Shown: positions 24,481 through 63,330 of the stretch, in pieces
Layout: every line of letters begins with the position of its first letter
Numbering within the stretch: position 1 is the first letter of the stretch
The notes under the pieces: model-generated
Told to the model about the DNA's origin: nothing
The model's database searches: none
The model's input: only the letters and a program-made list of their open reading frames with translations
Source: Marsupella aquatica
Taxonomy: Eukaryota; Plantae; Marchantiophyta
Assembly (NCBI GenBank): GCA_973895155.1
Contig: OZ316899.1
Coordinates: 3,555,455 to 3,619,454, forward strand
Reading direction: 5' to 3'
DNA: 64,000 nt
Made by a program: the position numbers and the translations under genes

Positions 24481-24511
24481 AATAATACACTTTTAATGAA
24501 TAGGTTGATAT

Positions 24512-28944: not shown

Positions 28945-29663
28945 CTATTTGAAATCATGTGATGGCACCTCAGAACCCTCTGGAATGACATGGTGATTGG
29001 AGTACACCATACGCCATGGACCAATATCCCACGTTTCTCTACCCTTCACCCCTCTCTTGAGGTGTTTTTCTGCCTTTGGTCCCTCATCCCTGCACCACGC
29101 ACGAGGGCACCTACGACACTGGATAAATTCCCAGATGCCATCCCGATACTCCTTGCAAACATCACAATAATGCCTTGGGCATATCAGAGCAACGGGATGT
29201 GCATCTAAGTTCTCTGCATACCCCAAGAGAGGCAACTCCCTTGCCCTCAGTATGGTCCGCAGACAACCCACATGATAGAAAGAAAAGCAATCATCTTGTG
29301 CACATTGAACCACAAGGGGCTCATCTGTAGTGGGCTTTAGGGTTTGGCCAAGTAGTCCACAAGCAAAGCAACGACCTCGGTTCTGCTGGCAGAGTTCATA
29401 GAGCCACTCCTTGGCCCAATCATGCCCTCTAGAAATGGCAATGCGTGTGCACTTAGACCCATGGCCATCAGGCTCCTTGGGATCCTGCCCATCAACTAAG
29501 TAATGGAAATGACGATTGCAAGGCCCATCGCAAAACAAAACAATACCTCCCTCATCACATTCAAAACAACAAGGGGGATCCATGCAAAGGTGCTCTTTAT
29601 GGGCAAACTTTGGATCCAGCCAAGCAGCAGCAGCCCATGCCATGCCTGATGTGATGTGTGGAT
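28945..29663 (-). CDS. EDM2/NSD-type tandem PHD-like zinc-finger cassette (exon) within the CACTA element
   Basis: CFECDEGGIVLFCDGPCNRHFH...RCFACGLLG...VQCAQDDCFSFYHVGC...ICPRHYCDVC...QCRRCPRAW follows the Cys/His pattern of the EDM2 PHD region. Preceded by a tgtgcag acceptor. Confidence 0.78.
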
Positions 29664-38392: not shown

Positions 38393-39299
38393 CCTTGTAT
38401 TACCCCACTGAGAGATGGTGATGGTGTTGAGCAGAACGTTGGACAGTTTCGTACAACTCTCCCAAAGCCCCTGAGCCAGTATGAAGTAACAGACTCAAGT
38501 ACAGAATGTCACGTTTGAACAGGTTGCTCCTAGAGAATTACGTATCTCCCACGAATGCCAAGTCCCCACAGAGGGTTAAGAGATGGAGTCTCTAGCACAT
38601 TAGAGTGCTGCTCCACGGTAACACCAACAGAGCCGAACACTTGGAAGATTACCATTGGACCAGCAACCGTCTTATACTTTGGCAGCGTGACCAGCAATCT
38701 TCAATGTTACCGTTAAAATATGACCGTTGATTGATTTGGCCTTATTGATAGCGCCAAGAGCTAGCAAAAACAACTCTATATTACCCGATTTAAACTACTA
38801 ATCGACCATATATGTGTTTTTACACAATTCAAATGGATTTCCAGCCTTGAGGGATGAAATGGACCGTTTTATCCATAAACGTTTATTAGCGCTTGACGCT
38901 ATCATAAATGACATCCGATTTGAAGCTAATCGTCACGCGAACGTAATACAAACTCATCCATATCCAGAAATATTTTCAAAATTCCACTGGTATCAGAAGG
39001 ATAATTTTGAGCATTCCAATGATAACGCCGAGCTCTAATAGGGAACGTGTCACGGGTAAGACCCCTCCATCGGAAACTACAAGCATTTTCAAGACTTGCA
39101 AACGATATTTGGTACAAAGATTGACTCATTCCCATAAGACAAAACATTGAAAAACACGAACTGACTCATGCAAACTTTGTCAAGGGGATGTCTAAGAGTT
39201 CGGAACTCCATTTACGAGCATCAGATTTACTCCACCAAGTCTAGAAACATCAAGTGTACACTTCAGGATTTTTTAAAAAACTGGGGAGTAACCTCCCAC

Positions 39300-39910
39300 T
39301 ACATTCCGAGACTACCATGTTGGCAAAAGATTGACAACCATTACTACCAAAACTGCAACAACTGGTCGTGGCTATCAACATCAGACTCCACCAAATGGAG
39401 TTGGCTATCTACTCAGGACTACTTTGTTCTGTAGGATCACACGACTGTTGCGTAGCCGAGTTAAGTTAATCTTCCCACCACCTTGGCTTGTATGCGTTCG
39501 AATCGTCGTTGGAATTGCTAGAACCAATGCCCCAGCAAAACCCACCCCGACTGCAAGAGGAGTTGTCGTTGGACCCCAAGCCATTGTGGGTCCCTACGTC
39601 GTCGTCTGTATCCTCGGCTTCACTAGAAGAACTTGTGCCATGACCAGGTGACTGGTGCAAAGTAGAAAGCTTTGCCTTTGACAACAAAGATTTCTGCACG
39701 GAGGGTTGAACTTCTGCTTTAGATTGAGGAGCACCATCTAGTGCGGATACAATTGCCCGCTCTTCGCGATCACTTTCCCCTTCGCCAAGATCAGGATTGT
39801 TGAATGAGCTGGAGGCTTTGCGAGAGACTTCTCTGCAACACCCTCTCCATCATTGTCGCTTTGAAATGTAACCTTCGCCTTCCCCCTTTGCTCGTGGTGG
39901 AGCCATGAAA
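39300..39910 (-). pseudogene. Low-complexity basic ORF remnant specific to element B (MAPPRAKG...)
   Basis: ORF pieces 39850-39905, 39738-39938 and 39466-39699; may be upstream exon(s) or separate cargo. Confidence 0.3.
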
Positions 39911-40573
39911 ACTCTAACGAATGACTCTGAAAGATCAAGACTGAAACAAAAGTTTCTCGGATGAAACTGGAGACGGGAGCGCAAGAAAAGTTTTGAGAAT
40001 GAAAAACTCCAAATGATGGGAGGCAGACTTGCCGGCCTGGTTTTGGGGGATAGAGGTGAGAATGTTTGGACCCCGGATGGACGTCTCAGATGTAATGGTT
40101 TCCGATCATGGGATAGATGTCCGAGATGCGTCGGTAGATTTTTGAGATCTCTTGATTGTGAAAACTTTAATGCACACGTGTGTATTTGGACGGCGTCATA
40201 GATTTCCTGTCTGTTGTTAGAGTTATAACGTATGAGCAGTGAAGATAGCGCCAAGCGCTATTATTACAATCGGAGCTTTTCCTCTCCTCCTCACCAGGCG
40301 ATACTGTATTTGGTCTAGAGTCATGCTTCCAATGTTAAGTTGTTCTTCGTTCACAAAAGTAGCGTCTGACGCTATTAAACTACTGACCAATCAGTTGGTT
40401 CAATATAGCCGTTGAATAACGACAACTCAATTGATTTACATCGTCCAAACGCTTAACATATCTTTCTTTGTCATTATTCAATGTTTGTTTATAATGTCGT
40501 TATTAACCTCGTACATCAAACAAGCCTTAAACCGATTGGCAAAGTGAGACATCAATTATTCTCTTCCGCTGAA

Positions 40574-43283
40574 ATGGGACGATCGATCGTAGTTACACGC
40601 AAGGACACGCAGGATGTTATCACGGTTATCGTTTCCCCTGAATCTCAGTCAAGGAGAGTTTTGGATGAATACTTGGGGTTAAGATTTGATGTTTCAAAAG
40701 AGTGTATTCTTTCTATTTCCCTCCTCCCTAAGGATTTGAAGGGAAATACCATCTTCTATGATGTCGTTGATGGACTCAGGTTTTGGACGATGTATCCTGA
40801 TAAAGTATACGAGGTCTTTGTTTTGGAAGATTTTGAAGCATCGGCAGATATATGTCCTATTTCCGGTGGTGTTGATGTTGTCAATCTCTCAGACACTTTG
40901 GAAGACGAGGGGAAAAATTCTCCCCTTTCCTTTGATGTCCCAAAAAGGATCCCAATGGATCCCTTGGTTGTGAAGATGGAGATTTGAGATGTTCCAATTG
41001 TATATCGGCAAAGTGCAATGGATACTATCCTAAAATCAAAGGGGCATAGCAAGTTATCTCGTTTCATTAGGGAGAACAATTTCATGCATCAGACAGTTCC
41101 CAACCTCCCGATGACATACAATGGGAATGTAGTGTTTGAGTTGCCTCTAGTCCAGTCGATTGCATGAATTTGAAAGGGGAACGACTGAAGGACACGGACC
41201 GCGGGAAGGATTGCTATTTGCGCGTCCAATAACATGTGGAACTCGAACATACATTACTCTGATATAATTCTATGCATGACGTCAAAACTCACCCATGACC
41301 CCTCTAATGAACCACCAGGCTGCATTTTCTGGAGAAGATCGATCCCAGATCCTTCGCCTTTCACAGTCATCTTGAAGATGTGAGCACTTTCGTCTTGACA
41401 TCCTTGGCCTGGAAGAAAATACCTATGAAGAAAGGGAAGTCTCACACACTTTTGCATCCGCACCAAATATTTGAGCTCACCTTAGTTTACCTTTTTGGTC
41501 CGTTACCAATGTTTTGTAATAGCTCCCGACGCTAATATGGAAAATGAGTACTCGGAGTCCAATGTCTTGTTACAGTATAGTAGCGCCAAGCGCTAGTGTG
41601 AACAAGGAGACTTTTGCAACTACAAACATGACATTGATGCAAGAGATTTAATAGCGCCAGGGGCTACTAATAGTTAGAGTCCATATAGCATAAATACAAA
41701 CTACACTTGTCGTGAATTACTGTAGTTGCTAAATATATTTATTCGTTTCCTATGACAGAGCAAGAGTGCTGAAGAGGCAGGTATGATTCCAAATTGTACT
41801 GGTTTGGAATTGGTCCATGCAGGCATGAAGGCGTGGCAAATGAAGAAGCGGGTTGGCCTCATGGAGGGATGCAAAACTGACCAAAACCGAGCTGTATGTC
41901 AGATTGTAGCTTATACTGCATGTGGTCAAGGATTACATTGGGGAACTGGACCCACTATCTTTGAGCTGGCTTTCAGATCTGCGAACATGACAGGGTCTCC
42001 ACGTCTATTTGAAGAAGCGACCAATCTCCTTCTTTCCAACGCAGCTGAATTTGATTTGGAAAGAACTGTTCCATTGAATGGAGACGTCATCACTCGATCG
42101 GTGAAAGGAAAAGGTAATGCAAGTGGGAATGTCTCGGCACAAGACTCTCACAAGCATGATACTATCCTTCTGACTTCACCAAATACAAGGGGTTTGAAGA
42201 GGAGAAACCTCCATTTTACAGACTCCGAGAAGATGTCTTCCATACCTTCTGCTGGTGGAAGTGGCGTCGTTAATTTGTCTCAAACTGAGAGTGAAGATTC
42301 TGAGGAGGTCGTCATCCTTGAGACACCCTCATGTCGAACGACAAGATCTTTTATTCCTCCCGTCAGACATCAAGCTGAGGCCGCGCCTGAGGAATCTCTT
42401 CTCCCGATGGAAACTGACATAGCTCTAGGTCTATGGCAGCTCCGACGAACTGCAAAACATGGTCTTGGTCCAGCTTGTAATGGGACGCTCGGTTGGAGAG
42501 GAAGCCGCGATGAATGTCAAAATCGAGTAAAGAAGGTTTTCCAAATCCAGAAGGAGTTATCACAATAAATTTGTAAGAGGATGTAGACTTTTTAGAGGAG
42601 AACCTCATCCGGACCAGATATGGTTTTGCCCAAACAACAAATGTCACAAAAGTTGGCCAAGAAGAGGTGTTTCAAACATTCCCAATATACCACCCGTTCT
42701 CCCCATTGCAAGAGGGACCAATCTCTAGGAGGGCAAGATCCAATTCTTGAGAAAACAAGGTCTAATTGGGACAGGAGAGGTAAGGAAAGGTCAGGAGCCA
42801 GCCCCGTTTGAGTTACGCATCGATGTGAATTTGTTCCAAGAGATGATCAATTGAGCGGACCCAATTTTCAGATGTGGCTCTAGGAATGGAAGGAAGTGCT
42901 CGCAAAGAGTATGCGTGAATCTAACTCAAACACATTACAAGAAGATTGAAGCATCCGAAATAGAAGTAATGAGACTCGTATGAGAGAGAGATGTCACGAG
43001 TGGGAATGCGTGGGGAAAGCAGTATTGTATCAGAACACATGAACATGAGAGGACTGTTGCCTCTTATTGGGTGCAGATTTGTTGTTTCCCTTGCTGTTCA
43101 TGTGAGGATTTCTATCGGAGGCACATTTATAGGAAACCTTACATGCCTTGCAAACATCTATATTGGGTATTCAGGACTGTGTTGAAGTTGAGTCTTCATG
43201 ATTTGACACTATCTAGTCAACCAGTTCTGATATTGGGCGAAGTCCGTTACCTTCTTGATCGACAAAATGGAACAAACATGTAG
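40574..43283 (+). pseudogene. MULE transposase of element B with internal deletions and an inverted segment
   Basis: MGRSIVV and YRQSAMDTILKS...YNGNVVFELP match A. ~41225-41510 encodes FLHRYFLPGQGCQ...WVSFDVMHR on the minus strand. The exon from 41759 (SKSAEE...) and the SWIM motif CSCEDF...CKHLYWV are conserved. Confidence 0.88.
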
Positions 43284-44358
43284 TCAATTTAGTGACATTC
43301 AACTGCTTTAATTGGCATTTGTCTTTTCTAATGGGCAGAAGATGTACCCGTTTCTTATTCAAAAATATGTAGTGTCTGTTGCTAGCCAAAATTCGCAATA
43401 GATAGCAAACATATTGACTGTTAAATAAAGCGCGTTTTCTTATAATGACCTCTATATTGCCTGTTATTTATCATTGAATGGTGGGCCCCATTATGTTAGC
43501 ATTTCAGTGAGCGCTTATATGGTTGTTGTTTTTTAACATGGAGCCTTTTTTGTCAACTTTGAATAACCTAGAAAACTCGTACAAGTTCTTGTATGAGTAA
43601 TTGAATTCCTCGTATGAGTAAATTTTTGCTCATACGAGCAGAAAATTTGCTCGTAACAGCAAATCTATTTACTATTTGTTGTCACGGTGGTTATACCCAA
43701 TACTAGGCGCATTGGAAAGGGAGAACTTCAATTTACGATTGTAAGGGGCAACATCTAGCAAAGGGGAAGCAAAAGTGCTAAACTTGCACCATGGCAAAGG
43801 GGACATGAAGCACAAAATCAAAGCATGACCGACAGGGGGAAGAAGCACAGTAGGTGGACAGAGAATGCACAACTATCCAAGATACCTCAGAGACAAAGCG
43901 TATTGCAATGCAAATGTAATGGTAGCAGGTAAAGGCAGTGGTGTTGCAGCAACTCCCTTCGTAGCTCTAGCCAAAGGCGCAGAGCAAAACTCTCGTTCAC
44001 GTTGCAGCTCCAACTTGCAGGACGGTTAGCATTGCCCAAGTGCGCGCAGCTTGAGCTACCTTTCACCTGGTTCTTCCCTATAGATGACAACCCGCGGCCA
44101 AAGCTAGTCCCAAACGCAAATGCCTCCCTATTCACAGTGCACAGCTTTGAATCAGTCCCACCGTCCTCACCGATTAGTCCCACCTTGCAAATGGCTTGCG
44201 GATGGAATGCAGAGACTAAGCGCAAGAGACCGGGCCACACTCCATCCACACTGCAAAGATGGGAAGCAACACACACAACCTTCAAGAAACATAGGCGTAG
44301 CGGTCCTCAACTCCTTCACCCTAAAATGCAGCAGTGACCTCGTAGCGACCTCATAGAT

Positions 44359-45958
44359 CAGCCTATTCATTAAAAGTGTATTATTATTTGATTTATGTAC
44401 ATTTGGGCAATGAAAAGTGTACTTTTGGGCTTGGAAAAGTGTACATTTGGCCAATAAAAAGTGTACATTTGGGGCTAGAAAAGTGTACAATTGGCCTAAA
44501 GAGTGTACATTTGGACAATGAAAAGTGTAAATTTGAACATCAAAATAGGTACATTTGGCTTTAAAAGTGTACATTTGAGTACATTTGACCTAGAAAGTGT
44601 ACATTTGAGTGAAAAATGCATACATTTGGCTTAAAAAGTGTACATTTAAGTGCATTTGGTCTAGAAAGTGTAGCTTTTAGTGCAACAAAGTGTACATTTG
44701 GCCTAAAAAGTGTACATTTGCCTACCAACTCTTATTATAATCATTTTAAAGAAAGGAATGAATAGAAAAATATTTTTAATTATGTAGAAAAAGCAAACAT
44801 TCATATTCATAATGATCAAAAGTTTAGAAAATGAGGAGATAGTATCACATTAAAACTATTAGAATAGTAAATAACTAGTACGTAAATTACTATGTTTGAA
44901 GAGTGACTATCTTAGTTACATAAAAACTAGTAACTATCTATTTAATTATTATAGCTTCTAACAACTAAGTCTACTTGTCCATCCTTTGAAGATAATTTTG
45001 GACAGTTTGTAGAACATTTTGAGGGATCTTCAAACCTCTGTCCGCCATGTTTTCTTCTTTCATTCCAGATTTAAAACCATACATTGCAGAATTTGCATAC
45101 TGCCAATGTTGAGTATTCTCACCAAACCCTGGATCTTGTTCCCATGTCTCAGTGGACAGGAAACAATTTAGATACCGCGCACTCTCAGTCACATCAAGTT
45201 TAGAGTGTTTAGGCCTCCACCATTCAACTGGGAACATTGGAGCATATTGTTGAGGTAGAGAAGGGTTTGTTGAAGATGTTGTTGGGACTTCATGCTTTGG
45301 GTCCACCAAACCCAAAGCTCTCACCAACCAGAAATGACCTCCACCATTTTTATTCTCCCAGTCATCCTCGGGTCAAAGAAATACAAATTTTCCTTCACAA
45401 ATATCCTGTAAAGGAATCCATCGTCCTTGTTCTCTCTCAGCTCGAGATCCAAGAAATGGTGCTGCTTGATCTTCCATCTCTTCCAAGACCTCATTTTGAA
45501 GAGCCGTCATCTCTTCATTCTCCTCATCTTCACTTGGAGGACCACTTTGTTCCGGTTGGTTGACCTTGTAACCAGTGCCGTGGTTAGTCTTAGGCCAAAA
45601 TCTGTTTTTCAAGGGAAATTGAGTACTTCCCTCCCCTTCTAGTGCGAGGCCATTTGTCAACAACTCCACAATTCTCTCCCAATATTTCACAAGAGGAAAT
45701 CTTTCCTTATATGCTATAGATGTCTCATCAGTGCAACTCCTTCTCAAAAATCAAGGTACTTGTTAAGAAATGGGATAATCTCTTCAGATTTTTGTGTATC
45801 TCTCCAATGGATTTAGCTAAGGGCTCTCCACTAGGTAAAAGAAGAGAATTTGTTGTCAGATCTGTTGCCCAAATGCACCTTCCACCAACTGGAGCCCAAG
45901 CTTGCTTTACATGGGACTTATACTGAAATATTGGTACATTATCTCTCATAGAGAAAAG
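44359..45958 (-). mobile_element. Second copy of the Sola-like element (3' end), inverted relative to copy 1
   Basis: Reverse complement of ~22896-24507 at very high identity; terminus CAGCC at 44359, preceded by AGAT. Confidence 0.88.
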
Positions 45959-47069
45959 ATGACAGTTTGATTCTTCAAACTGTCAATCTGGTTCCGGAGT
46001 CGTGCAATCTCGGCCTCGTTCCCAGCTTTGGCCTGCTCGGCTAGGGCGGTAAGGGCGTGCGCCTTTGCTAACAAATCATCAGCGGCTGCAACCTTGGGTC
46101 GTAGTTGCAGAAGCTCAACCTCTTGAGCCGCAACTTTGTTCTTTAAGTAGACGGACTCCACCCGGTACCGCTCTATCCTCTGAAGGGCCTCTGACTGGGC
46201 CCGACCTGCCTTTACTGTGGCAACTAACTCCTGATTGAAGAAACAGGCTACCTTCTGGGCCATGAACTCCCCGGTATCCCGGGCAATTTGATGAGAGAAA
46301 TCTCCCAGAAGCCCGTTCAGAAATGTACCCGGTACAAAGAGTTCCAGGTTGTGCCTGTCCGGAGTTGGGCACGGGCAGATGTCAACACGCGCGGGGGCCG
46401 GGGCAGTGACGTCCAGCCCTGGGGACGTAATGTTGGAAGGGGCTGGAGTGTCCTCCTGCAGCAATGTTCGGTTCTCCGGAATAGCCACCGGTGGGTCTTT
46501 GGGAGACCCGCCCTCGGGTAAGACCTCCGCCGTACCGACTTCTGTACTTAGCCCGGCCTGTTGGATCGCATCAACGGTTGCGACAACCGACCCATCCGGT
46601 ACCTCCTCGGTTACGACTACAGCTACTTGTGGAGGTGGGGTGGGTGAAGCTGGCGTGTCCGCTGGACTTCGGGCCTCGGGTTGGGGCCGTCTCTCCAAGG
46701 CCGGAAAAACCCACCTAGCTGGGACCAGCTTTGTAACGTTGACACGGGGAAGGGTTCGTCGATCAAACCGAGCGTACCACTCAAGAATGATCTCGATGTG
46801 GCTAGCGAAATACGCCTTCCCGCCAATGTATAGCGTCTTCCTTCGCCGCTCCATCTCTTCATGGAATTTCTTAGCGAAGTACGACGCCCACTTCCTAGGT
46901 CGATAGTTCTCAACCTGGATAACCTGGGCGGCGGAGATCTCCCCCCGGGGTTCCATCATGTGGAGGGCATACCTCTGGAACTCCAGTCGCTCAGCTATCT
47001 CGGGGATGAGGCAGGTCCTCATCACAAACCCGTTGTCCACTGCTCCTTCCGAGGGAAAACTTGAGGATT

Positions 47070-47100: not shown

Positions 47101-48765
47101 TTGCCCCCGGGAGCCCGTGATTCGACTCGATGGTCACCTTCGGGTAATCCAAAGATCATCCTGAGCCGTTCTTCCGTGAGGGACATATTCCTTCCCCGCA
47201 CCCGAGTATGCTGACGTGTATCATCATAATTCTTGACGAATTCTGTCATGTCCTCCCCGTAGTACCTGCAAGTGTTCCAGGGCAGAGCGGCGAGGTGCTC
47301 GAATCCCTAAGTCTTCAGGTACACCGCATGCTTGGGATGGAGGATGTTCTTATGCACGTTTTCCCCCATGCGGTGCATTGTTACCTTGGCCACGGCTACC
47401 TGGAACCACGGCCACGGCTACCTTGGCCACGGCTACCTAGTAACCTGGATGCAGTGGCGAGTTCCTTCCTCTTCTTCCCCCGTGACTGGCTCGGGGAAGG
47501 TGACACCTCCCCATCCTCTCGATCGGGCATAGGTAGTACTACCGCCGTTAGTATTGGTCCCAGGGCGGCCACGGTCACCGTGTTGTCTGCTGGAGCCGCT
47601 CCTTGGGTCCGAGCATGGGGAGGGGATGATGCAGTGTCGGCCCCCTGAGTGTTTACTCCTCTGGGCCGCTTGAGCAAGGGTGGGGTAGCCTCGTCATCGT
47701 CGCTAAGGTCCACAGCGTTGATGATGGAGCGTACTTGTATTGCTGGCGGGGCGATCGGCGGTGGGGGTTGGCTAGGCTGAGGCTGAGACTGAAGCTGAGC
47801 CTGAAGCTGAGCCTGAGTCTACGTTGGTACGGGTACGGGTATGGGGTCCACTGGGCTGGCGCCGGTGGTTGCGGGTCTAGTTCCCATGAAGCTCTGCAGG
47901 TGCTGGTAGAAGTTCTCCGAAGCAAGTGCGGACGACCTTGTCGAACAGGTAGTGGTGGACTCGCTGTTGATGATAGCCCGAACCTGAGCAGGGATGTGGT
48001 CGAAGTGATGTCGTTGCAAGTCGATCGTACCCGGGATATTGAAGACCTCGTCCGGAAGCCGAAGCAATGCTTCCCAGAAACCGATATATTTGTCTCCGTT
48101 GAAGAAGTAGCCAGATACCTCTGCTGGTCGGTAAAGCTTGCTCTGAGACGGGTAGTCAAAGTTAAGGATGTAGTGGTGTCGTCCTGCTAGGCGGATGGCT
48201 CTCTCGTACTCGCGTTCGATTTTGTATCGGTGCGGGTTGGCGTGTTTCAATGAGTCGGCCAAGTGCCTTCTGGTAGATAGGAACTGCGTCCAGAATCGAA
48301 TGGCCAAGCTGGAGAGGATCGTGTGCAACATTCAGAGGAGATAGTAGTGGCGACTTAGAGCGAACGAGAGAGCTGGGGTCGAAGCTGGCGCGTGGACTGA
48401 TGGACTGGTGCACTCCAAAGGGTCGGCTCCCTTTTTATACCTTGAGGGCTTGCCGATCCCCCGACATCTCCTCGACGCCCATAGGCTGAACCGCTCACGC
48501 TTGTGGTGTACCGGCCACTCCGCCGGTCTGAGTCAGCGCGTGTCAGTGGCCGCTTCCTTAAGTTCGTTATACGGACCCAAGGGAGGGGCCCCTCCACGCT
48601 CGTAACCCGGGTGTGCGAATAGCGACCCGTCGCCAGTCCGAACCTGAATTCCCCCTTATTGCCTAATGATGTCCTACCCATAATGATTACCTAAATACTG
48701 TCGTTATGCTAACAATAGCGGCCTAAGACACTCCTAACGCGCGTGCTGAGCGCAGTTAGACCGAA

Positions 48766-51700
48766 TCACTCATTAACCGCTGTACCGGCGGCGTCACATA
48801 GCTCCCTGCTTAATTGTGAAGCGTCCTCGCGAACATCACTCACGGCGTCGTCATCTTGATGGTGGTACTTTTTTACACGATCGTAGCTGATTCGCGTGGG
48901 GAGTAAATCGCCGGCATACGTTGCAAGCTCCAAAGATCCGTTACGGTAGATCTGATTGACAAGGAAGGGCCCTAACCACCGGGTATGAAGCTTCCCTGGA
49001 AACTGCATGTACCTACTATCGTACAGAAGGACTAGATCGCCTGCCACGACGTCGACCCTCCGTAGTCCTTTGTCGTGCTGCTTCTTCGAAGTTGCCCGTT
49101 TCTTCACGACGTGTCGAGCTGCTAGTAGCCGTGCTTCTTCTAGGGCTTCAATCTGATAAGCTCGGTCTGACAAACTTTCAGGTTCGGGTAAGCGATCCCG
49201 AATGCTGACTCGTGGAGTGTGTACTTCAAACTCGACGGGTACCAACGAATGTTGGCCGAACACGAGAAAGTACGGGCTGTGACTCGTAGTACTTTTGTAA
49301 GCGAGATTATACGAGTACACCGCTGCGTACAACTTATCATCCCAATCCATTTTGTGCGCCGCTACCGTCTTGTTGAGGATTTTCCCAATGATACCATTGG
49401 CTCTCTCTGTCATCCCGTTGGCCTTAGGATGATACGGGGTAGTCTTGCGGTGCTTGACTAGGTAACGCTCCGTAAGCTGGGCTACGGTGTCATTGAGGAA
49501 GTGGGTTCCACGGTCGCTTACCAATTCTAAGGGTGAGCCAAATCGGGTGAAAATCTGTTCATATAAGAACCTGGCGCTGGTTGCGGCGTCGTCCTTCACC
49601 GTAGCCCGTGCTTCGACCCACTTGGTGGAGTAATCAATAGCTAGCAGGATGTACCTGCATCTTTGTCTTCGGGTAATGGGAGTAAATGGCCCGATTAAAT
49701 CAATACCCCACTTTTCGAACGGTGCTAATGGAAGTACGGACGTGAGAGGGTGATGATGAGCTCATCTCGGGGCCCCAGCCCGTTGACACAGGTCACAGCC
49801 CTTGATGAAGCGTTGTACATCCCGATGCAACGTAGGCCACCAATATCCGGAGTCCAGAATCTTTTGGGCTGATGTGATAGCCGCGAAATGGCCTCCAGCT
49901 TCTTCTTCATGCAAGGCCCGCATCACGATAAGCGTCTCCTTATACTCCAAGCAGCGTCGTAACTTCCCATTAACTCCTTCCTTATGTAGGTGACCCTGTA
50001 CCATGACGTAAGGCCCGGCTTTCCGTAGAAACACAGCGGCGGCTTCCTGATTGATGCCGTCAGGGATGCGACCTGTCAAGAGGAAGGTGATAATTGAGCC
50101 GTACCACGTTGGCGTCCCCGCCCCTACGTGGAACAACTCCTCATCCGGAAAAATATCATCAATTGGCTGATCGACTGGTACGCCGTCCAGCCTTGAAAAG
50201 AAGTCGGCATTGAGGTGTGCCTTTCCGGGCCGAACCCGAACTTCGTAGTTAAATTCCTGGAGAAGTAGCACCCACCGGGCTATCCGTCCCGTCACGTCCA
50301 CTTTGTTGACCATGTACTTCAGGCTATCATGATCCGTGTGGAATATGACCTTGTAGCCTAGCAGATAGTGTCGGAACTTTTTACACGAGTAGATTATTCC
50401 CAGGCTTCTCAATCAGTGGGGGAATAATTCTTTTCGGCTGTGAATAATTGATGGCTAGCAAAGTAGATGGGGTGGTCGCGTCCGTTCTCATCAAGCTGAC
50501 TGAGCACGGATCCAATACAGAACCCTGACACATCGACATACACGTGGAACTCCTTATTCCAGTCCGGAGTGACCATGATAGGTGCGGTGGTGAGTCTTTT
50601 ACGGAGTTCTTCGAAAGCAATCCGTCTCCTGGGTGTCTCCTCGATCACCGCATCCTTTTTCATCATCTCAGTCAAGGGCAGCGCTATTTTAGCAAAGTCT
50701 TTAATAAACCGATGGTAATACCCTACACAGCCCAAGAAGGATCGTACCACTTTTTGATCTACGGGAAACACCACCGCCATCCAGGCCACGACCTTCTCTT
50801 GGTCCACCTCGATACCCCGTTTGGACACACAATGCCCGAGTAATACTCCCTCCTCTACCCTGAAAAAACATTTAGCGGGATGTAGTTTAAGGTTAACCTC
50901 TCGGCATCGTTGGAACGTACGTCTTAGGTGTTCGGGGTGCATGGCGACAGTTCCAAAGATGGCAAAGTCGTCGATAAATATCTCTAGAAATTCCCGTAGG
51001 AAGTCATGGAAGATATTCATCATGAGTCGCTGAAACATGGCCGGAGCGTTACACAATCCGAACGGCATTCTCCGAAATGCGAAAGTCCCCCATTCCGTAG
51101 TGAACGTTGTTTTGAGCTGATCCGAGAGGCGAATCCAGATTTGGTTATAACCCAAATACCCGTCAAGGAATGTATAAATTTCATTTTGGGCTACCATATC
51201 TAGAACCATATCCGTGAATGGTAACGGGTAATGGTCTTTTCGGGTTGCGTCGTTCAGCTTACGATAGTCCTGACAAATCCGGATCTTAGGTTTTCCGTCC
51301 GTTCCTCCTTTTTTCGGTACAATGACGATGGGAGAGACCCAGTCGCTGGCCATTACCGGGTAGATGATATCTGCGGCGAGGAGATGATCAATTTCCTCCT
51401 TCACTAAGATGGAGTACCTTGGGTTCATGCGATGTTGTCGTTGCCGTACTGCATGGGCCCCCAGATTCAAATCGATCGTGTGTTCTCCTAACTCGGGGGA
51501 GACTCCTGTTAAATCGTGATGGCTCCATGCAAACACATCTTCATATTCCTTGAGCAAAGCTTGGATGGATTTTTCAGCCTCCCCTGTCAGAGCGTGGCCC
51601 AGGTTAAAAGATTTGTCCATCCCAATGGTGTACTTCCGGTAGTGCTCCTTCCTGATGACTTCAACCTGGTTTCGCAGGCTCGGGTCCAGGCTCGCATCAA

Positions 51701-54700
51701 GCTCAGCTAACCAAACTCCTCCGTACATGGGTGGAACCGGGATTGGTCTCGGGATTGGAGTTACTTCCTCCAATTGCGGAATGGACGGATCCCATGAGAC
51801 TCGTTTCTTATGTCTCGGTCTCGAGTTTTCGGCCTCGGGCGGTTGTTGGGCTGGTTCGTGGTCACGAGGCTCTGTAACGGTAGAAGCAGCCTCGGCTCCC
51901 TGCTTAGCTGGAGCCGTGTCCTCCGTCTCGACGAGTTGTTCATGCGTTTCCTCATCCCCGACAGTAGATGTGCTTGGGGTGGACTCAATGGCAGCCCTCG
52001 GGTAATTTAGGAGATATGTTTCGTGGGTTGCTTCAACTCCGAAGACATCTTCCTCGGACAGGGACGAGATGAGTTCAATCATATTGAGTTCCTCTTCCTC
52101 TGAGGTCTCCGAATCATATTCCTTGGGTCCTTGTGGGGTTTCTCCATGATAATCGTCCATTGCCCATGATACCCGTATGGTGGGTGTCCCGAACCGTAGC
52201 TCCTTCTTTCCCCAATCCGTGACCACACGGCCACCGTACAACCACGGTCTGCCTAGGAGGACCGGATAAGAGGAGAGCCGAACCGGCCTCATGACTAGGA
52301 AGTTGAGATAGAACTCCACCCCTCCTACCAGAGTGAGTACCCGTGTAAGCGTGCCCAATGGAAGTACCCTTGCCCCGTTTGCTAATCTGATAGCTCGGGC
52401 TGTGGGTTGATACGTGAGGTATCCTAACTTGACTGACGTCTCTTCCGTCATGATGTTGACTCCCGCTCCTCCGTCTACGAGAACCATCCTGATGGTACAA
52501 TTATTAATTTCAATCGAGATGTCCGGCGCTCCCAGGTCCTCGCATATCATGTTGCAATCCGCGGTCCCAACTTGGGGTAGTCGTCTCCGTCGTCGACCCG
52601 TAAGCAACTCCCTCAGTTGCCGTCTGTACTATGGATTGTTTTGCAGCAGTTGTCCTACCGTTGCTGTAACCGGGCAACTCTTCACGTCCTCCTTAATATC
52701 ATAGTCCTCCTTCTTTTCTTCCTTCGGCTGCTACTTGGCTTCCTCTTGCTTATCTTGCTTTTCTTGCTCCTGTCGCCAGGCTGTCTCGGCTGCTTTGATG
52801 TCCTTATCGATTGCCTTCTGGTATTCCCGAGCTTCGTAGGCCTCCAGCTGTTTCTTTACCAATTCTTCGATGCGGGGGAAAAATAGCTTCGGGTCGTCCC
52901 GTCGGTAGTCATCGTCCTTCTCCGGGGGTATATCTATCGCTGGCTGCACCGGAGTAGTATCTTGCTTTTTCCTGCGTTTCTCCTCCTGCTTCTCTTCCTT
53001 CCGTTCAGCTCTTGTTGACACACGATAGCACTCAGCCTCGTCAGATGGATTAGGGTGTTCCGCCACGTCCACCAGATTCACCCACTCGGTATTGTCATCC
53101 TGCCATTCCACCGCAATCATTTGGACGACCGCATCACTCGTGGTCGGTCCGCCCTGGGCTGGTCTTGCTGCATTTGTTCGAGCGGCCATGACCAATGGAC
53201 AGTTGGCCGAGGAATGAGCTTCCGTTTTGCAGACTTGACAAAGTGGCGTGCCACGGCCATCCCCCTGGCGTCTTGGTTTGGTGCATTCCCTCGCAAAGTG
53301 TCCTGGCTTTTCACAGTTATAACAAACCGGGGATCGCCAAATCCCTGGCTTAGGAGGGATGCTCGGGTTACTGATAACCTGGAAACTCCGGCCATTGTTT
53401 GGGTAGGGGTACGCAGTTCTACCCGCTAAATTACGCGGACCTACCGTTGAAATCTGGTACACGGAATCAGGAGGGTCCTCAAAGAAATACTCCGTGGACT
53501 CCGATTCGGGACCCGGGTTGTCAACATCATCCAGCTCTACTTGGTGAACTCGGTTCTTCCACCTTGGGCATTCCTGCACCACATGGCCGGATTGGAAGCA
53601 CTTTGAACACCACGCATGGGCTTGAATCTCAGATGGCTTCTTCTTCTCCACCCGCTTTTCCGCAAGATGTACTGACAGTGCTTTGAGTCAATCCGTGATT
53701 TCGTTCAGCTTGTCTACTTCGGCAGCCTTTGGATCTGGTATCGTTCTTCACGCCCGGGGTTTGATCTTCCCCTCCTTCTTCACTCATCTCTTCTTCTTTT
53801 TGCTCTGGCTTTCGCTCTCCGAGTCACTTCCTGATGAACTGGAGGTAGAGGATCCGATCCTTGAAGCTGAATCCGAACTGGATTCTATCTCCGAGCTGGA
53901 CGAGGTCGAACGATGTTTCTTCTTCTTCTTGCGTTTCTTCTTCCTCTCGTCGTCCAATTTGGAGTCACTGTCACTGAAGATCTCGTACTTACCCTTCTTG
54001 CGGCGTGCTCGCTGGCTCCGCCGGGAGTTATAGGTGGACTCTCGGTAAGTTTTGGCGCACGCTATGGCCGCCTGCATTGAAATTGGATTATTCTGGCGTA
54101 CCCAGAATTGCATATTCGTGGGCAAACCATGAAGGAACCATGTGAGCTGGAGCGCGTCTCCCGGCCTGGGCCGGATCTTGGCCGCAAGTTTCTGAAACTT
54201 CTGAATGAACTTCCTCAGGGACTCCTTCTTTCCCATGCGAAGCTGGCCAATCTTTAATAGAGAACGCTGTTCTGATCCAATGGCACGAAACTCCTGCAGC
54301 AATGCAGCTTTGGAATTGTGCCCATGTCATCCCGGGTGGCAACGAGTTGTACCATGGACGAGCTTCTCCCCGCATCACTCCCGGGAGGACGGTTAGCTTA
54401 ATGGCGCCTTCCCCATTAGCTTTAGCAGTGGCTTCAAACTCATCCAACCATTCATCCGGATCATCCCCATGACGCCCCTTGAAAGGTCGATAATGAAATC
54501 GCGATCGTTGCGATATTTGCGGAGGAGCTTGAGCAACGCGGGCCATCGGTGGAGCGGCTGCCATAGGTGGTGGTGGAGGTGGCGGTGGTGGTGGTGGTGG
54601 CGGAGGAACCGCAGCAGGACCGGTCGAACCGGACCCCAAAGGTCCCGGGGGTATGTTCATACGTCGGGGCGATTGCGAGTCCTCCGAGCCCAAAGAATTG

Positions 54701-54777
54701 AAACTTGTCGTGGTTGCACTTTCTCGTTCGCTGGTCAATCTCCTCAAGTAAGCTGCTTGAGAACGAGTGACGGGCAT
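48766..54777 (-). pseudogene. gag-pol of gypsy copy 2, with frameshifts and stops
   Basis: ORF pieces 54088-54777, 53784-54302, 52731-53651, 50409-52607, 49762-50412, 48766-49599 carry the same motifs as copy 1. Confidence 0.95.
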
Positions 54778-54975
54778 TTACTCATATAAATGCGATGGTT
54801 AGTACTACATCCTAATGTATCCTGCCTAGGTGAATACGCACATGTCTCCCCTCTACGATATGTAGAGTGCCCCCTCTGTCAGCTCACTTTATTTTCTACG
54901 CGAGTGTCGTGCAGATGTTTGACATATTTCTCCTTGTCTTCTAGGAGTTCGCTCTATTTATTTCCGTTTTGACAG

Positions 54976-55799: not shown

Positions 55800-56099
55800 T
55801 GTCGTGCGCATACACATCGCTACACAACATACATCGCTTGTCACATACATCCAAACATAGTCACACTGCCACATTACAAACACAAGAGAATGAAATACAA
55901 GTGGAACTCATGTCCACACATGTCCAAAACTCATAATCTCAATACAATCGGCACAATGATCCCGGTCAACAATACCCCATCGATCCCGCACCAATCCGAT
56001 CACACACGTATGTCAAGCCAATGCACCTTGCACTACTCAAGGAATCCACGTTACACAATCGGAGCTCATACTCATGTCCACACATGTCCAAAACCCACA
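55800..56099 (-). repeat. Probable 300-bp 3' LTR of the DNMT-gypsy
   Basis: TG...CA boundaries; minus strand AGGGGGCGAT (PPT) directly before TGTGGG. No matching 5' LTR was found in the window. Confidence 0.5.
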
Positions 56100-56277
56100 A
56101 TCGCCCCCCTAGCTGGGAGTAAGGTCCCCTACCTCTAGCTAGCCATGAGTTCTACAAGGTTGATATACACCTTTTTAGGTGTGAAGATCAGGAGGTCGGG
56201 TGCAAGTGAGCCCCATCAATCACCTACCTACAATCCATATCTGCCAAGAGAACACAAATGATAACTAGTCAGCTTCA

Positions 56278-56415
56278 CCGACACTGAGGACACAACCATG
56301 ATCCACTAGGAATCACCTGCAATGGTGGTGTCAAACATGACATGTGCCATCCTCTAGAACACTTATCACAAATCAACATAGTAGCTTCTCCCTCAGCAGA
56401 TCCACACAACATACA
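56278..56415 (-). CDS. PHD finger at the C-terminus of integrase
   Basis: CMLCGSAEGEATMLICDKCSRGWHMSCLTPPLQVIPSGSWLCPQC gives the C4HC3 pattern. Confidence 0.9.
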
Positions 56416-59394
56416 TTTCAAGCCAGCATGAACATGTGCCAAGCTTGGATCTACTGTACCATTAATGTTGGGAAGGTGACATGGTGCACAGTTGCGCACA
56501 TGATCCTTCCAAACCATACCATCGCGTCCCTCCAACATTAGGACACCAGAAGGCAACAATTCACGCACACGTAAGATTGTCCGACTTGTGGTCACATCAA
56601 GTGTTGTGGGTGTTGTCTGCTGCAAATAAACATAATCACCAGGATGAAATCGTCGAATGCTTGCATGGTAACCTCCTCCACGAATAGTGGCATACCTCAA
56701 AGTACACAATATTGGGCAATGGCAAGGTTGTCAAAAGCCATGGGCATCACTCTCTGAAATACCCGTGCTCTCTCTGAACACACCTTGACCCAAACATCAG
56801 GATCATCCAACTTCACAACTGGTGCAGCATCACGACAAATAGCTGCTGGCAAATCTGGCTCTCTACCATAGAGCAAAAAGTAAGGTGAGAAGGATGCAAG
56901 TGATGTTTGCCGACTGAAACGGTAGCCCATAGCTAACCAAGGTAGTTGGAGATCCCAATCTCCCAGATGACCAACCTGCAAGCCATACTTACGCAATCCT
57001 CTCTTCACAATTTGCACAACTCTCTCAGCTAATCCATCTGCCTCAGGATGATCACGAGAGGTAGTACGATGATCAATCAGAGCTTGTTCACACAAACTCT
57101 CAAACTCTCCATGGAACTTAGTTCCCTGATCAGTCAACACCTCAGCTGGTGCTCCAAAATGACTGAGTACATGATCCAAAAATGTAGCAGCAACTCCTCC
57201 ACTGGCTTTATCTGGCAACGCCACTAGCTCAATCCACTTGGAGAAGTGCTCCACCATGACCAAAACATACCGATTATGACGTTGGGTAAGAGGTAATGGA
57301 CCAGCAAAATCCAAACTCCAACGATATCCCAAACCCATGATCGGCGACAAGTGCAATTGGGGAGTGGGAGCATTAAATGATGCTCTCACTCTATCACATA
57401 CCACACACTTAGCTATCAACTGCTGGACATGAATGTGCATACCACGCCACCAATACTGTGTCTACAGCAAGCTATAAGTGCGCTTCACACCAAAGTGACC
57501 CAACTCCTCATGTGCATGTCGCACCAAATGTACTCGTTGTGATGGTTTTGGTACCACCAACACCCTACCATCATGTAGTACTCTCAAAAGATGGTTTCCC
57601 TCCCATCGAAAACTCTTGGCTCTCTGTAGAACCCTGTCACGTTCTTTGGCATCAACATTGCCAACAATAGAACCACTGCGCAAATATTCCAACACTCTCA
57701 CATCATTGTGAATATCTTGCTATCCAGCAGTTACCTCACCAACATCCACATCTGAAGACTCATCATCCACTCCATCCAATGAGGTAGAGTCCACAGATCC
57801 ACTGTATGCTGGCACCCAACAAAGAAAGGCAGATGCATGCCATCCTGGCACCATCTCCTTATCTGACTCATCATGCCATCTGGCTCCAGTCTCATCTTAC
57901 TGACTGGTACGTGGATTGTGGCTTAATCCATCTGCATCCAAGTTCACTTTTCCGGGCCTATGCACCACCTAGAAATCATATTCCTATAACAACAATGCCC
58001 ATCATGCAAGCTTCCCTGTAAGCTTGTCAGACTCCATTAACCACTTAAGAGGCTGATGATCAGTGATCAAGGTGAAGGGGTTACCAAACAAGTAGCAACA
58101 AAAATGTGCAAAAGCCCACACTGCTGCCAAACACTCTCCCTCATAAGAGCTATACTTAGCCTCTGCTGAATTGTTTGATCTACTGGCATAAGCCACAACA
58201 AACTCATTCCCCTCATCATCCTTTTGAGTCAGCACTGCTTCAAGTCCTACTCCACTCCAATCAGTGTGTAGCTGAAATGGTCTGCCTGAAATGGGTCTTT
58301 TCAAAATAGGGGATGATGCCAACCTTTGCTTCAACTCTTGAAAGGCATGCTCCTGGTCATCACCCCAAATCCATTCCTGATCCAACTTAGTGAGTATGGT
58401 CAAAGGTTTAGCAAGCTGGCTAAATCCTTTAACATACCTCCTGTAGTAGCTCGCCAATCCCAAGAATGCACGAACTCTACTCACATCAGTAGGACAAGGA
58501 ATCTGTGTAATGGCCTCCACTTTAGTCTGCTGTACACCCAATCCCCCTGGGTATATAGTGTGGCCCAAATACTCAAATCTGGTCTTGGAAGAACTTACAC
58601 TTGCTAGGATAGAGCTTCAACCCATGTGCTCTCAATCTCTCCAACACAGTCTGCAAGTGCTGCTGATGTTCTTCCACATTAGAATAATAGACCAAAATAT
58701 CATCAATATAACATCTGACAAAATCCAAACCTGCAAGGATTCGATCCATGACTCTCTGGAACTCAGCTGGTGCATTCTTCAACCCAAATGGTAAGAATAA
58801 CCACTGATACAAACGATCTTTGCCATAAGAATCAATCCCCCAAAATGCTGTCTTGGACCTGTCAGCATGCCTAATTGGAAGCTGATGGTACCTTGCCCTC
58901 AGATCCAATGAACTGAAAACCTTTGCATGCCCCATAGCATCAAAGATCTCCTCAGGTGTGGGCATGGCATATCTATCAGATTTTGTCTAGCGATTAATGG
59001 GTCTGTAATCACCACACATGCGCCTATCTGTGTAATTGCCATGCACATCCTTCTTGGCTGGCATCACTGTGGTAGATGCATACTCCCCATATGAAATCTC
59101 CACCAATCCAGCCTCCAACAAATCTTGAGTTCTGCTTTGAATCAAAGCTCTCTCCATGTCACTATAACGGTATGGCCTACAAAAGATTGGCGCATCACTA
59201 GCCAATTCAATCTGAATACCAGGACCCTTTAATGCCCCCAAATCTTTCATGCTAAATGCAAAACAATTCCAGTAACTTTTCAGGAATCGATGCATGCGAC
59301 GTCTCTCCTCCCCTATCAACTTAGGGCCAAGCTGTGGTTCCCAACTCTCCACCAAATCCCTAATATCTCTTTGTAGGGTAGAAGAGATAGCCAA
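56416..59394 (-). pseudogene. RT-RNase H-integrase of the DNMT-gypsy, with stops and frameshifts
   Basis: ORF pieces 58987-59394, 58573-58965, 58002-58568, 57462-57701, 56697-57440, 56275-56709. Confidence 0.92.
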
Positions 59395-59439
59395 TGATTG
59401 CTATTTAGCAATAGATTGAGCAATCCCTTCCTGCTCAAC

Positions 59440-60545
59440 AATCTGTCCAGCCTTGGCCAATCCTGCCATAGGTCCATGGATTGTCTGCTCGCCCCCAGCT
59501 GTGGTCAGTACTGTCTTAGTGGACCGCAAGCTCACCAAGGGACAATCAGTAATTCCAGCAGAGCGCATCCACAACTGTTCAGCTACTCCCAAGCTGATAA
59601 TCAAAGTCAAACAATTCAGGTCCATTGCTTGACCAAGAACCTGGCGCCGCAAACCCTCTGACACAGAGGCAACTGCAGTGGTGCCAGTCAAAAATCCCAT
59701 AGCATGCTCTCTCTCATCAGCAGTAGGTTCCACTAACTACTGGAGAGTTGTGTTCCACACAAGTCTAGGGCCACCTGCTTTGAATGCATATGAAGTAGAG
59801 TGGCTTACAAGAGTGGGTAATGCACAACGTGGGCACCCAACTGCATTGACCATTGCCAATGGAGGTCTATCAGGTTGGGTCACACCCTATGCACGACGCC
59901 CTGGATCCAAAATATCATCCACCACTAAGGCTGGTGAGCGTGGAATGCTATCAAATGCGCGCTTCAACACCTCACATGGGATCAAATTAGTCCACCACAA
60001 GCATGGACGATGTGCACGAGAACCCACACGTGCAACATCCAATAACACAGCAGGTCCAATCCAAGACCTCACCTGGTGAACACTGGCAAAAATCCGACTA
60101 CGATCATCACCTAACAATGGCACATTCTCCAAAATGTATGTTGGAGACTATGTCTGATGTAGTTGGAGATGACGCAGCACCCGTAACATCTCCCAAAACA
60201 ATGCAGAGCGTGGATCATGAAGTCCATGCCCAACGCCAGCTCTAGATTGGCCCTGACATGGCCAACTAGCAATCACCAAATCAATGGGGCCAACACGATG
60301 CAGATGATCTGCCCCCAGCAATGAAATATCAGCAGGTAGTGCATGCTAATAACCACGAACAACATCCACTGGCAGTAACTGTGGATATCTATCCACCAAC
60401 ATAGCCACATGTCACAATGAGACCCTCCATGCTGTCTCATCTGACTCCACATACAAATAACGACGCATAGGAATTCCTGCCTGAAGAACAACAGCCAATC
60501 CAGTGCTAATCCCACCAAAAAGATCCAACAAACAAATACCCTCTG
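59440..60545 (-). pseudogene. C5-cytosine DNA methyltransferase domain (DNMT3/DRM-like) inside pol, in frame with RT
   Basis: Motif I LDLFGGIS, II YVESD, IV GPIDLVIASWPCQG (60253-60261 = PCQ), GLHDPRSALF, VI ILENV, VIII RAHRPCLWWTN, IX-X EREHAMGF...RRQVLGQAMD. One frame with internal stops. Confidence 0.92.
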
Positions 60546-60899
60546 GTGGATACTGCCAAGCAATAGGAGTGGTATCCAATGGTGAAAGAGTCACAGGTCC
60601 ATCTGCAAGAGACTGCTCTACTCTTGACTGTCGTGTAAAAGCATGACGCCATGCATCATGTACCAATCGTGCTGCTGTCTTTGGCAAGGCCTGTGCAGTG
60701 CCCCACACTGGTGGCACAACACTGCCAATAGGTAATCCTCGCATGATGTGCTCCTTATGAGACTCCTCCAATGGTGGAACATCTGCTGGATGCGCATTAC
60801 CCTCAATCAAATCATCAGGTCCAGCAATTAGACCACTGAATGCTGCCAAAGACAATGGTGTGGATTTAGGGCCTCCCAGGTCTATATGACACTGATTCC

Positions 60900-63330
60900 T
60901 CCCAAAAATCAAGAATAAATCCCATGGGGTAGAGCACTGTACATCCCACCAACACATCATATGACTCTGCCTTAGTCAGAATAGCTCACGCCTGTATCTG
61001 TGAGCTATCTGTGGTATGACCTTCTTGAATCCTCAAATCAAGAGGTCTCCTGGTAATGTGCTGTGTAGGTGTAGGTCCCCCCAATGAAGTCTGAATGGGA
61101 AAGGGACAATCCTCCAAATCCTCTGGACGCAATCCCAATCCACGTATGGCAGACTTTCCCAACATCAAGGGCTGAGCACCAGTATCCAGTAACACCCTCT
61201 CTGGCTGGTATACTACTCCAGAAGGCCCAACTAACCGGAAGATACCACTCCAATTATCCAATGATACAACACTAGGTTTAAACCTAGTCCTCTCAAATGC
61301 AGGGCGTGCTGGTAAATCCACCAACCTTGCTGCTGCTGCATGCCATGTCTCACTAGTAGCAGTAGGTGGCATGGTCTTCACTGCATCAACACTGCAAGTT
61401 GCTTCTGCATGGGAAGCAACCACTAGAGTGTCCTCACAAAGTGTAGCTGTCAATCTGAACACTTTTGCAGGACCAACTCCCAAGTTTAGCATGTTTGTCG
61501 CTGAAAATAATGGGCGCGTACCATGGCAGTAGCTGCCCCAGCAAGGTACCTGTCATCCCTGCTGCATCACTACCTGATTGTGCCAACTTACCCACATCAG
61601 GGTTTGTCCGAACCGGGTTCATAGAGGCAGTCTGAACTGTCTTTGACAATGTAAAAGACTGAGGAAGCTTTGTCTGCCGACGTGCATCCCCCCTTTGTGG
61701 ATCTAACTCCACTATTGCTCCTCGGGGCTCAAGAGCTTTGGCTGCCCCACGTGTCAAAGCTGTTGATGCATCAATATGTGCAGTGCCACACATGAATCCC
61801 ATGGTGGCAAGGTCTCCATCAGCTCCATAAGATGTGGAAGGACCATGGGATGTGGAAGGTCCATAGGATGTTGATGCCCCATCACCAGAAGTAGGTCTCA
61901 CCTGGGAACTAGCCATGGCAGCTAGCTATTGCTCCAATTGAGCAATCTTAGCATCCTTTGGATCTATGGTTACAGTAGGGGCAGCATCACCTCCCTGTCT
62001 CCCTGCATGTGGCATGCCACGACCACGTCCACCGCCTCTACCTCCTCCTCCTCTTCCCTAATCATGTGTACGGGATCCTCCTCTCCGTAACTCAGGATGG
62101 AGTGAGAAACACCTATCCTTGGTGTGTCCAGGAGCTCCACAGTGATCATACTGTCACTGATCAAGCGCTGATGCTCCCCCTGATCCTCTATGATCTGGGC
62201 AATATCTCTGTGCATGATCCCCACCACAGGTCCAACATCCTGACTACTGTCCAGCATAAGAGGGCACAGGTCTCTGGCTGGTAGACTCTCGTGCAGTAGG
62301 CTTCTCCCTCTGGCTCTTCCGTGTAGTAGGCTGTGGTGTGGATGTGGATGCAGCCTTTGGTGCTTCCTTGGCAAATCTGGAAGTCACCACCTTCTCATTC
62401 ACCATATTGAGCTCAATGCGCTCAGAAAGTGTAAAAACAACTGCTAATGTGGGATCTGCATCCCTAAGCAGAGTGACATCTCTCACTCTGCGTCGCAATT
62501 CTCTGTCCAGAATTGCATACCAAAACTGGACTGCCTGAGCCTCTGTCACTCCCTTGGTGACAGTGATCAATCTGCGCATACGAGTGTATGCCTCACGTAG
62601 ACTCTCTCCAGTCTTGCGTTGGAACTCCTGAAGACCCTTCAACTTATCAATTCTTACACCCTGATAGTTCTGCTTCAGTACCTCAAAGAATTCCACCACA
62701 GGGTTAAATGCTGGCGCAACTCCAATTCCTGTCACAATCACACCGGCAGGAGTAGCGGTGGATGTTGCTGGAGTGCTACTGGTGGATGGTGTGCCACTCT
62801 GGCTAGTGCTGCTAGAAGAAGCAGCAGCTGTGGCAATGGGTTGGGCAACCGCACTAGTGCCATAGGTGATGGACACTAGGCGACCAATGCTGCCTCCATG
62901 CCTCAATCTCAATTAAATGAGCCTTCCGAAACTCATGGTAGGCATCCATGGGTGGCCCCTCCAAATGCTGAAATAATCCCTTCCATGCCATGAAAGGGGT
63001 AAACAATGTGGCGTTATGCAATGTCTGCATATCGCACCACGTATCAAACTCCTGGATGAAGTCATCCAGATCAATCGTGCTAACTGCACCAAAGTATCGT
63101 CGTGGGCCCTTTGTAGCCCCTTACATCTCGTCCATATTCCACAACAAAGGTGCAACCACCTGATGATGAGGAGAACTGGTCACTGAGTCCTCATCAGAAT
63201 CACTGTCTAAAGCTGCACTGCTGACTGCTACCAATGCCGCTGGCCGAAACTGTGCCCCACTCCGAGTGAAACCGGTCCGTCGTCCATCGGGTAATCCAGT
63301 AGCACCAGAAGAATCCGTGGTGGCCAACCC
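60900..63330 (-). pseudogene. gag and aspartic protease of the DNMT-gypsy
   Basis: ORF pieces 63121-63327, 62244-62912, 60986-61492 (ERVLLDTGAQ). Confidence 0.85.

Follow-up and report, generated by a model that had tools for sequence, protein, structure and literature searches.

DNMT3-type methyltransferase domains precede a conserved stop codon in Gypsy retrotransposons of liverworts and mosses

The window, a 64,000-nucleotide stretch of DNA from the liverwort Marsupella aquatica, contains at positions 55800-63135 of the minus strand a decayed Gypsy element with the order gag-PR-DNMT-RT-RH-IN-PHD. This element belongs, as a dead copy, to a high-copy Gypsy family from liverworts and mosses, whose members carry a cytosine methyltransferase domain followed by a conserved in-frame stop codon. 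We are close to certain of the joint picture provided by the domain order, the family-wide presence of the methyltransferase, the purifying selection acting on it, the conserved stop with its sequence context, and the split repeats and target duplications of the relatives. The features of the window copy are as follows.

61530-63135 (minus strand): decayed gag that encodes zinc knuckles, with stops and a frameshift near 62880; tblastn match to Marchantia Mp4g09160 (P0004)
60876-61552 (minus strand): aspartic protease region with LDTGA, here frameshifted relative to both gag and DNMT; sub-threshold Pfam match to Asp_protease_2, E 0.0016
59611-60570 (minus strand): DNMT3-type C5 cytosine methyltransferase domain with five stops; motifs, Pfam and PDB matches
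59395-59403 (minus strand): conserved in-frame amber stop with CAR-YYA at the end of ORF1, a predicted readthrough site; comparison of loci
58576-59400 (minus strand): reverse transcriptase in the DNMT frame, with one decay stop at 58989; Pfam RVT_1, E 6.7e-28
58002-58577 (minus strand): C-terminal part of RT and RNase H; Pfam RT_RNaseH_2, E 2e-32
56700-57719 (minus strand): integrase with H2C2 zinc finger and DDE core; Pfam Integrase_H2C2 and rve
56275-56430 (minus strand): C-terminal PHD finger and ORF2 stop; Pfam PHD, E 4.7e-12
56101-56112 (minus strand): polypurine tract identical to that of relatives; comparison with relatives
55800-56100 (minus strand): segment 'B' of the 3' end, with CA as its last bases at the insertion boundary; similarity to the B ends of relatives, fall in depth and loose ends of variable sequence at 55800

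In its gag-PR-RT-RH-IN order and DDE integrase, the element agrees with Ty3/Gypsy. The window copy has a single B segment only, and its 5' 'A' end probably lies just outside the window. It had been regarded as dead in the sequence-only reading that preceded this work, and it indeed contains five stops in the DNMT domain (60414, 60348, 60150, 59889 and 59739), a cysteine in motif VIII, and other stops and frameshifts elsewhere.

All main C5 methyltransferase motifs named in that reading, including PCQ and ENV, are found in 59611-60570 (minus strand), and they follow the canonical order. In a translation with X at the stops, motif I (LFGGI) is located at ~60522-60508, motif IV (PCQ) at 60261-60253, motif VI (ENV) at 60129-60121, motif VIII (HRPC) at 60012-60001 and motif X (GQAMD) at 59634-59620. 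The reported exchange in motif VIII is also present, with the second arginine replaced by cysteine; arginine is found at this position in 43 of 59 alignments of relatives. Among the relatives, the catalytic cysteine is retained in 61 of 63 alignments and the glutamate in 59 of 61. The region matches Pfam DNA_methylase with an E-value of 4.5e-10, and its top PDB sequence matches are DNMT3A (E 3.8e-9). For the naturally open DNMT of a relative (L116), an AlphaFold model (mean pLDDT 87) was obtained, for which DNMT3A/3B rank first in a structure comparison (TM 0.73, E 4e-19). Judged by its own sequence and by the predicted fold of this relative, the window domain is of the DNMT3 type. The original description as 'DNMT3/DRM-like' thus holds in its first half, while a DRM identity was rejected because the catalytic motifs are not permuted. 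The DNMT domain and the start of RT share one frame in the window copy, as had been claimed, though a stop at 59401-59403 intervenes. The protease is in a different frame owing to a frameshift near 60878, and in P0003, a protein that is 84% identical, protease and DNMT form a single open frame.

Several lines of evidence bear on whether the domain belongs to the family as a whole. Summed contig depth, which is not equivalent to copy number, is even from 55800 to ~63100 in runs X1-X3, with the DNMT bins equalling those of gag, RT and IN, and in run X1 the element lies ~100-fold above its flank. At the insertion boundary at 55800, the depth drops and loose ends with variable flanks appear. The same domain order recurs across 80 metagenome loci wherever the loci are long enough. 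For the DNMT domain, the 17 between-family pairs, out of 28 pairs, that allowed an estimate of dS show dN/dS values of 0.10-0.25, and 10 pairs are saturated; one pair of close copies gives 0.98, as expected under neutral decay. The scenario that the sequence-only reading had named as fatal to its proposal, a separate nested insertion of the DNMT segment, or a passenger in this single copy, could draw on one X1 contig that skips 59471-60762, although this contig has a depth of only 296, compared with ~230,000, and just 23 letters on one side. It is refuted by the even depth, the constant position of the domain in relatives, the broadly congruent DNMT and RT trees and the signature of purifying selection, and retains next to no probability. 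We conclude that the DNMT is an integral domain of the family that is subject to purifying selection.

The proposed extension of DNMT-carrying retrotransposons to land plants holds through named proteins from Marchantia polymorpha, M. paleacea, Riccia sorocarpa, Calypogeia fissa and Sphagnum, the best of which are 64-69% identical. One family member, P0108, is labelled as a protein from a bacterial MAG and probably represents plant DNA in a metagenome bin. In the viral contigs searched, C5 methyltransferase matches reached only 24-41% identity. A DNMT profile search recovered 577 clusters at E-values up to 1e-30, which may include host and DIRS enzymes. Among 141 new representatives, the DNMT follows RNase H or precedes the integrase in 91, follows the protease or precedes RT in 12, and is accompanied by no other domain in 38. 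Two further proteins were noticed: P0244 (44 members), a weak match to the DNMT profile, carries an RT of a Copia-type family, and in P0237 a C5 DNMT is accompanied by a DAM domain.

Phylogenies were calculated for a selection of several hundred matches, comprising 76 DNMT and 50 RT rows (quick IQ-TREE runs with LG+G4, SH-aLRT support only, midpoint roots), leaving out P0388 and L156 with their short RT matches and containing no plant DNMT3, DRM or Klebsormidium rows. Gypsy-borne DNMTs form a single group in the DNMT tree (SH-aLRT 98), and the RT tree is split by DNMT position (SH-aLRT 94 and 92). The stop-bearing elements, comprising the window, Marchantia and Sphagnum-type copies, constitute one RT clade (SH-aLRT 99), outside which fall single-ORF DNMT-RT forms from Closterium and some other relatives. 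These patterns would fit an old acquisition of the DNMT that was rearranged later. Because roots as well as Klebsormidium and plant DNMT3 rows are absent, we claim neither a donor nor an order of events.

DNMT3-carrying Gypsy elements with DIRS-like repeats have already been published for Klebsormidium (PMC5890265). As described there, KnitGypsy-Dnmt3 of Klebsormidium nitens (de Mendoza et al., 2018) resembles the window family in being a Gypsy element whose DNMT3-type domain is non-rearranged and subject to purifying selection and, according to a figure legend, in having DIRS-like repeats, as seen in the relatives of the window copy (PMC5890265). However, its authors place the DNMT in the ORF of RT and RNase H and its acquisition in the K. 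nitens lineage, whereas the DNMT of the window family ends ORF1 before the stop, and the family is found in both liverworts and mosses and has kin in Closterium, Mesostigma and Cymbomonas. This comparison relies on the published description of the Klebsormidium elements; no Klebsormidium protein was present among the named matches or the 30 proteins looked up. Two other groups of elements share features with the window family. Gypsy-7a_cRei of Chlamydomonas is a PHD-bearing algal Gypsy element for which, unlike for the window family, no DNMT is listed (10.1101/2022.06.16.496473). EpiLTRs are likewise LTR elements with DNMT cargo, but their DNMTs are described as sister to DNMT4 and accompanied by DAM and a chromodomain (10.64898/2026.05.21.726589).

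The TAG at 59401-59403 (minus strand), the sixth stop of the region, divides DNMT from RT. Decay as its origin was ruled out, since related loci keep an in-frame stop at the same place. The end of DNMT and the start of RT are both spanned by 43 of the 80 loci, and 42 of these 43 retain an in-frame TAG or TAA (L089 has TAC), positioned 18-25 codons ahead of the RT query start. The stop is followed by CAR-YY in 41 of the 42 stop-keeping loci, compared with 6 of the 503 decay stops located within domains; CARYYA follows none of the 503. The window stop displays the full TMV-type UAG-CAR-YYA context, and CAR-YYA also follows an in-frame stop in L116, L117, L145, L147 and L150. The loci are redundant and fall into six lineages at <80% nucleotide identity, the window included, a count that merges L119, which is separated only by an insertion. 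The stop is kept in all six lineages and a perfect CARYYA in four (window, L116, L145/L150 and L147); the Sphagnum-type lineage, the largest with 38 loci, mostly has CAACCC, matching five of the six bases of the consensus, and L151 reads TAG TAG CCA at this site. The linkers measure 264, 318, 321, 360, 432 and 441 nt, each a multiple of three; a linker frameshift is present in 8 loci, and in the 35 others the linker length is likewise divisible by three. In L145, 1369 open codons, TAG CAG TTA and 1047 open codons succeed one another, leaving one stop in 2417 codons, and the first methionine of ORF2 lies 117 codons in. Consistently, full-length ORF1 proteins of the clade end 70-163 residues past motif X. 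P0003 and P0035 end at the same residue, and the evidence that the stop of the window copy is conserved consists of these two proteins and the more distant loci. The early end of P0218 was considered as a further readthrough stop and rejected in favor of a frameshift.

As the stop and the CAR-YYA context are conserved, ORF1 would comprise Gag-PR-DNMT, and Pol is likely made by readthrough of the conserved stop. The earlier placement of the DNMT within a Gypsy pol region thus stands as regards its carriage by a Gypsy element but not as regards pol, because the domain closes ORF1. Gao et al. 2003 is said to concern gag-pol recoding. In MuLV-type readthrough, the stop lies before the protease. 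It is described as requiring a pseudoknot (PMC3542737), whereas in the window family five lineages were examined and no strong RNA structure was detected downstream of the stop (z -0.95 to -1.62). Both the stop and the six bases after it, as seen in the window and in three further lineages, agree with type I readthrough as known from tobacco mosaic virus, for which UAG-CAR-YYA is the defining motif (PMC3542737) and has been reported to be functional in plants (PMC5397192); here, this context sits between Gag-PR-DNMT and RT. Alternatively, ORF2 could be expressed by splicing or separate initiation, with the DNMT still ending ORF1. Pyrimidine-rich tracts with AG are located past the stop of the Sphagnum-type, L116 and window lineages, and some GenBank gene models fuse DNMT to RT (P0009, P0024), but these models join the two at differing places. 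Similarly, reinitiation could use the ATG that follows the stop in most Sphagnum-type copies, but no such ATG exists in L116, L145 or the window. Neither process requires that the frame or CAR-YY be retained across unalignable linkers, and we consider this alternative unlikely overall, although splicing or reinitiation may occur, most of all among Sphagnum-type copies.

Sphagnum-type relatives lack LTRs of the ordinary kind. These copies consist of A (339 bp, starting with TG), the internal region, the polypurine tract and B (114 bp, ending in CA), and some continue past B, through two bases, into a second A and then another B. Rather than two complete flanking LTRs, the relatives thus show an A-internal-B or A-internal-B-A-B arrangement, and a DIRS-like A1...B1-A2-B2 layout is found in L097, L102, L109/L126, L119 and L120. 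Among 12 loci with both ends, nine, representing eight separate insertions, have an exact 4-bp target duplication, two have one mismatch and one has lost its 5' end. The relatives hence combine TG...CA ends, a polypurine tract and a short target duplication, of which the window copy has the polypurine tract and the CA end. The A1...B1-A2-B2 layout and a DNMT3 passenger are common to the window family and to DIRS/PAT-like elements with their split direct repeats, such as SymbioDIRS-Dnmt3, but the latter group uses a tyrosine recombinase, whereas the window family encodes a DDE integrase and has TG...CA ends together with 4-bp target duplications.

The B-A junction, which is also present in L145, is a near-palindrome of both ends. 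In the simplest model, a linear cDNA with permuted LTRs (B-A) would have its ends joined, after which the integrase would open an internal junction. The A2-B2 joints are ragged in places and primer-site bases are retained in L087/L138, which would fit ligated cDNA ends. On the other hand, B precedes the 5' A in none of 24 copies, a finding that counts against the symmetric version of this model. On balance, we give integration via an internal att-like junction of joined or circular cDNA an even chance. In 13 of the 24 copies, the primer site is complementary to part of A with at most one mismatch, and in 17 of 24 the complementary sequence in A lies 29-32 nt past a TATA-like box, suggesting that Sphagnum-type relatives may self-prime; no convincing match was obtained in the corresponding test of L145. 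The same arrangement of primer site and complementary sequence is described for the self-priming Tcn1 and Tf1-sushi chromoviruses (PMC6317226). These carry a chromodomain in place of the PHD finger of the window family, and the main text of the chromovirus survey mentions neither 'PHD' nor 'methyltransferase' (PMC6317226). A distant relative of ~31% identity (L156, L157 and L158) has a head-to-head end junction of its own.

What purpose could the methyltransferase serve? In the explanation we favor, if by a modest balance of probability for the whole, ORF1 encodes Gag-PR-DNMT, and readthrough of its stop would add RT-RNase H-integrase-PHD. The DNMT would be packaged at Gag-like levels alongside the RNA, be present during reverse transcription and methylate the element's own cDNA ahead of integration. 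The domain is likely to be catalytically active. The cDNA would be its likeliest target because a Gag-fused DNMT would be present at reverse transcription, and we rate this part of the proposal as evenly poised. Methylation of cDNA has been proposed for DIRS elements by de Mendoza et al., who report that the Symbiodinium retrotransposon DNMT3 (SymbioDIRS-Dnmt3) conducts de novo CG methylation in yeast and that the Klebsormidium Gypsy DNMT showed no activity there, a result the authors call inconclusive (PMC5890265). Within the window, CpG depletion and mutation context do not single out the element. Its CpG o/e is 0.30, as against 0.95 in a neighboring DNMT-less Gypsy element, but this depletion is no sign of self-methylation because a CACTA element in the window is equally depleted (0.25). 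CpG context accounts for 5 of the 20 T>C/A>G differences listed, compared with a background of 36%.

The principal alternative, which we regard as rather improbable, is that the DNMT acts after integration, with the integrase PHD reading histone H3 and the DNMT marking the new insertion or nearby chromatin, thereby tempering harm to the host or shaping the insertion site. DNMT and PHD co-occur in most complete elements, and the best PDB matches of the window PHD are the fingers of CHD4, DPF3, KDM5B and ATXR5. Several of these read unmethylated H3K4, like the ADD domain of DNMT3. In this clade, however, the DNMT resides on ORF1, apart from the integrase-PHD, so that the two would be linked only in the minority readthrough product, until protease cleavage. 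Finally, the domain may have been kept for DNA or RNA binding (for instance, to the att-like junction) or for RNA methylation rather than for 5mC formation in DNA. Such a role would be in line with the inactivity of the Klebsormidium enzyme in yeast and with the frequent replacement of PCQ by ECQ in motif IV among the 141 distant representatives. It is very unlikely given that the motifs for SAM binding and catalysis hardly vary within the window's clade and that the modelled L116 domain matches DNMT3A/3B.

The window also contains several other elements. An ORF weakly similar to N4/N6 DNA methyltransferases at 10462-11760 (minus strand; second copy at ~35196-36077, minus strand) matches Pfam N6_N4_Mtase (E 2e-4), DpnA (E 7e-4) and, in Atlas, bacterial N6_N4 clusters (0.93); no clear catalytic motif was seen in it. 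Liverworts have a 4mC methyltransferase. The ORF is part of a multi-ORF unit, possibly a large DNA transposon, with two copies (10086-18818 and 34207-43244) that are 65-75% identical. The DNMT-less Gypsy is young, with 97.5% identical copies at 1-6215 and 48644-54876, no CpG depletion (o/e ~0.95) and, in the first copy, one in-frame stop near 3159-3161 between the gag-PR and RT-IN frames. A 1.6-kb inverted repeat (22906-24509 and 44357-45959; 98% identity) has arms 20 kb apart and 22-bp subterminal repeats, a CACTA transposase (Transposase_21, DUF4218) is located at 24302-26687, and an ORF at 28945-29676 (minus strand), situated amid transposon sequence, encodes an NSD-like PHD finger (E 2e-8).

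A literature search, which reached few subscription papers, returned no report that places DNMT-bearing Gypsy elements in bryophytes or other land plants, nor one that describes the conserved stop, and later papers citing the Klebsormidium work apply the term 'streptophyte' to DNMT3-Gypsy elements and, in the passages concerned, name no land plants. Our findings thus extend DNMT-carrying retrotransposons from algae to land plants, including Marchantia polymorpha, with the caution that bryophyte DNMT3 counts include transposon ORFs. The conserved stop predicts that the methyltransferase is made at the level of the coat protein and Pol at a fraction thereof. M. polymorpha offers many annotated copies with an open ORF1 and good genetics, making it possible to test the question posed by de Mendoza et al. 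of why an element should carry its own silencing enzyme. It is tempting to speculate, though we consider so broad a reading doubtful, that these elements represent an old, undescribed Gypsy branch of the green lineage, abundant in bryophytes, in which Gag-fused DNMT3 fills the particles, a leaky stop rations RT and integrase, priming is tRNA-free, cDNA ends are joined, integration proceeds by cutting an internal att junction that is possibly marked, and new copies arrive pre-methylated. If so, de novo DNA methylation would have a mobile source in land plants.
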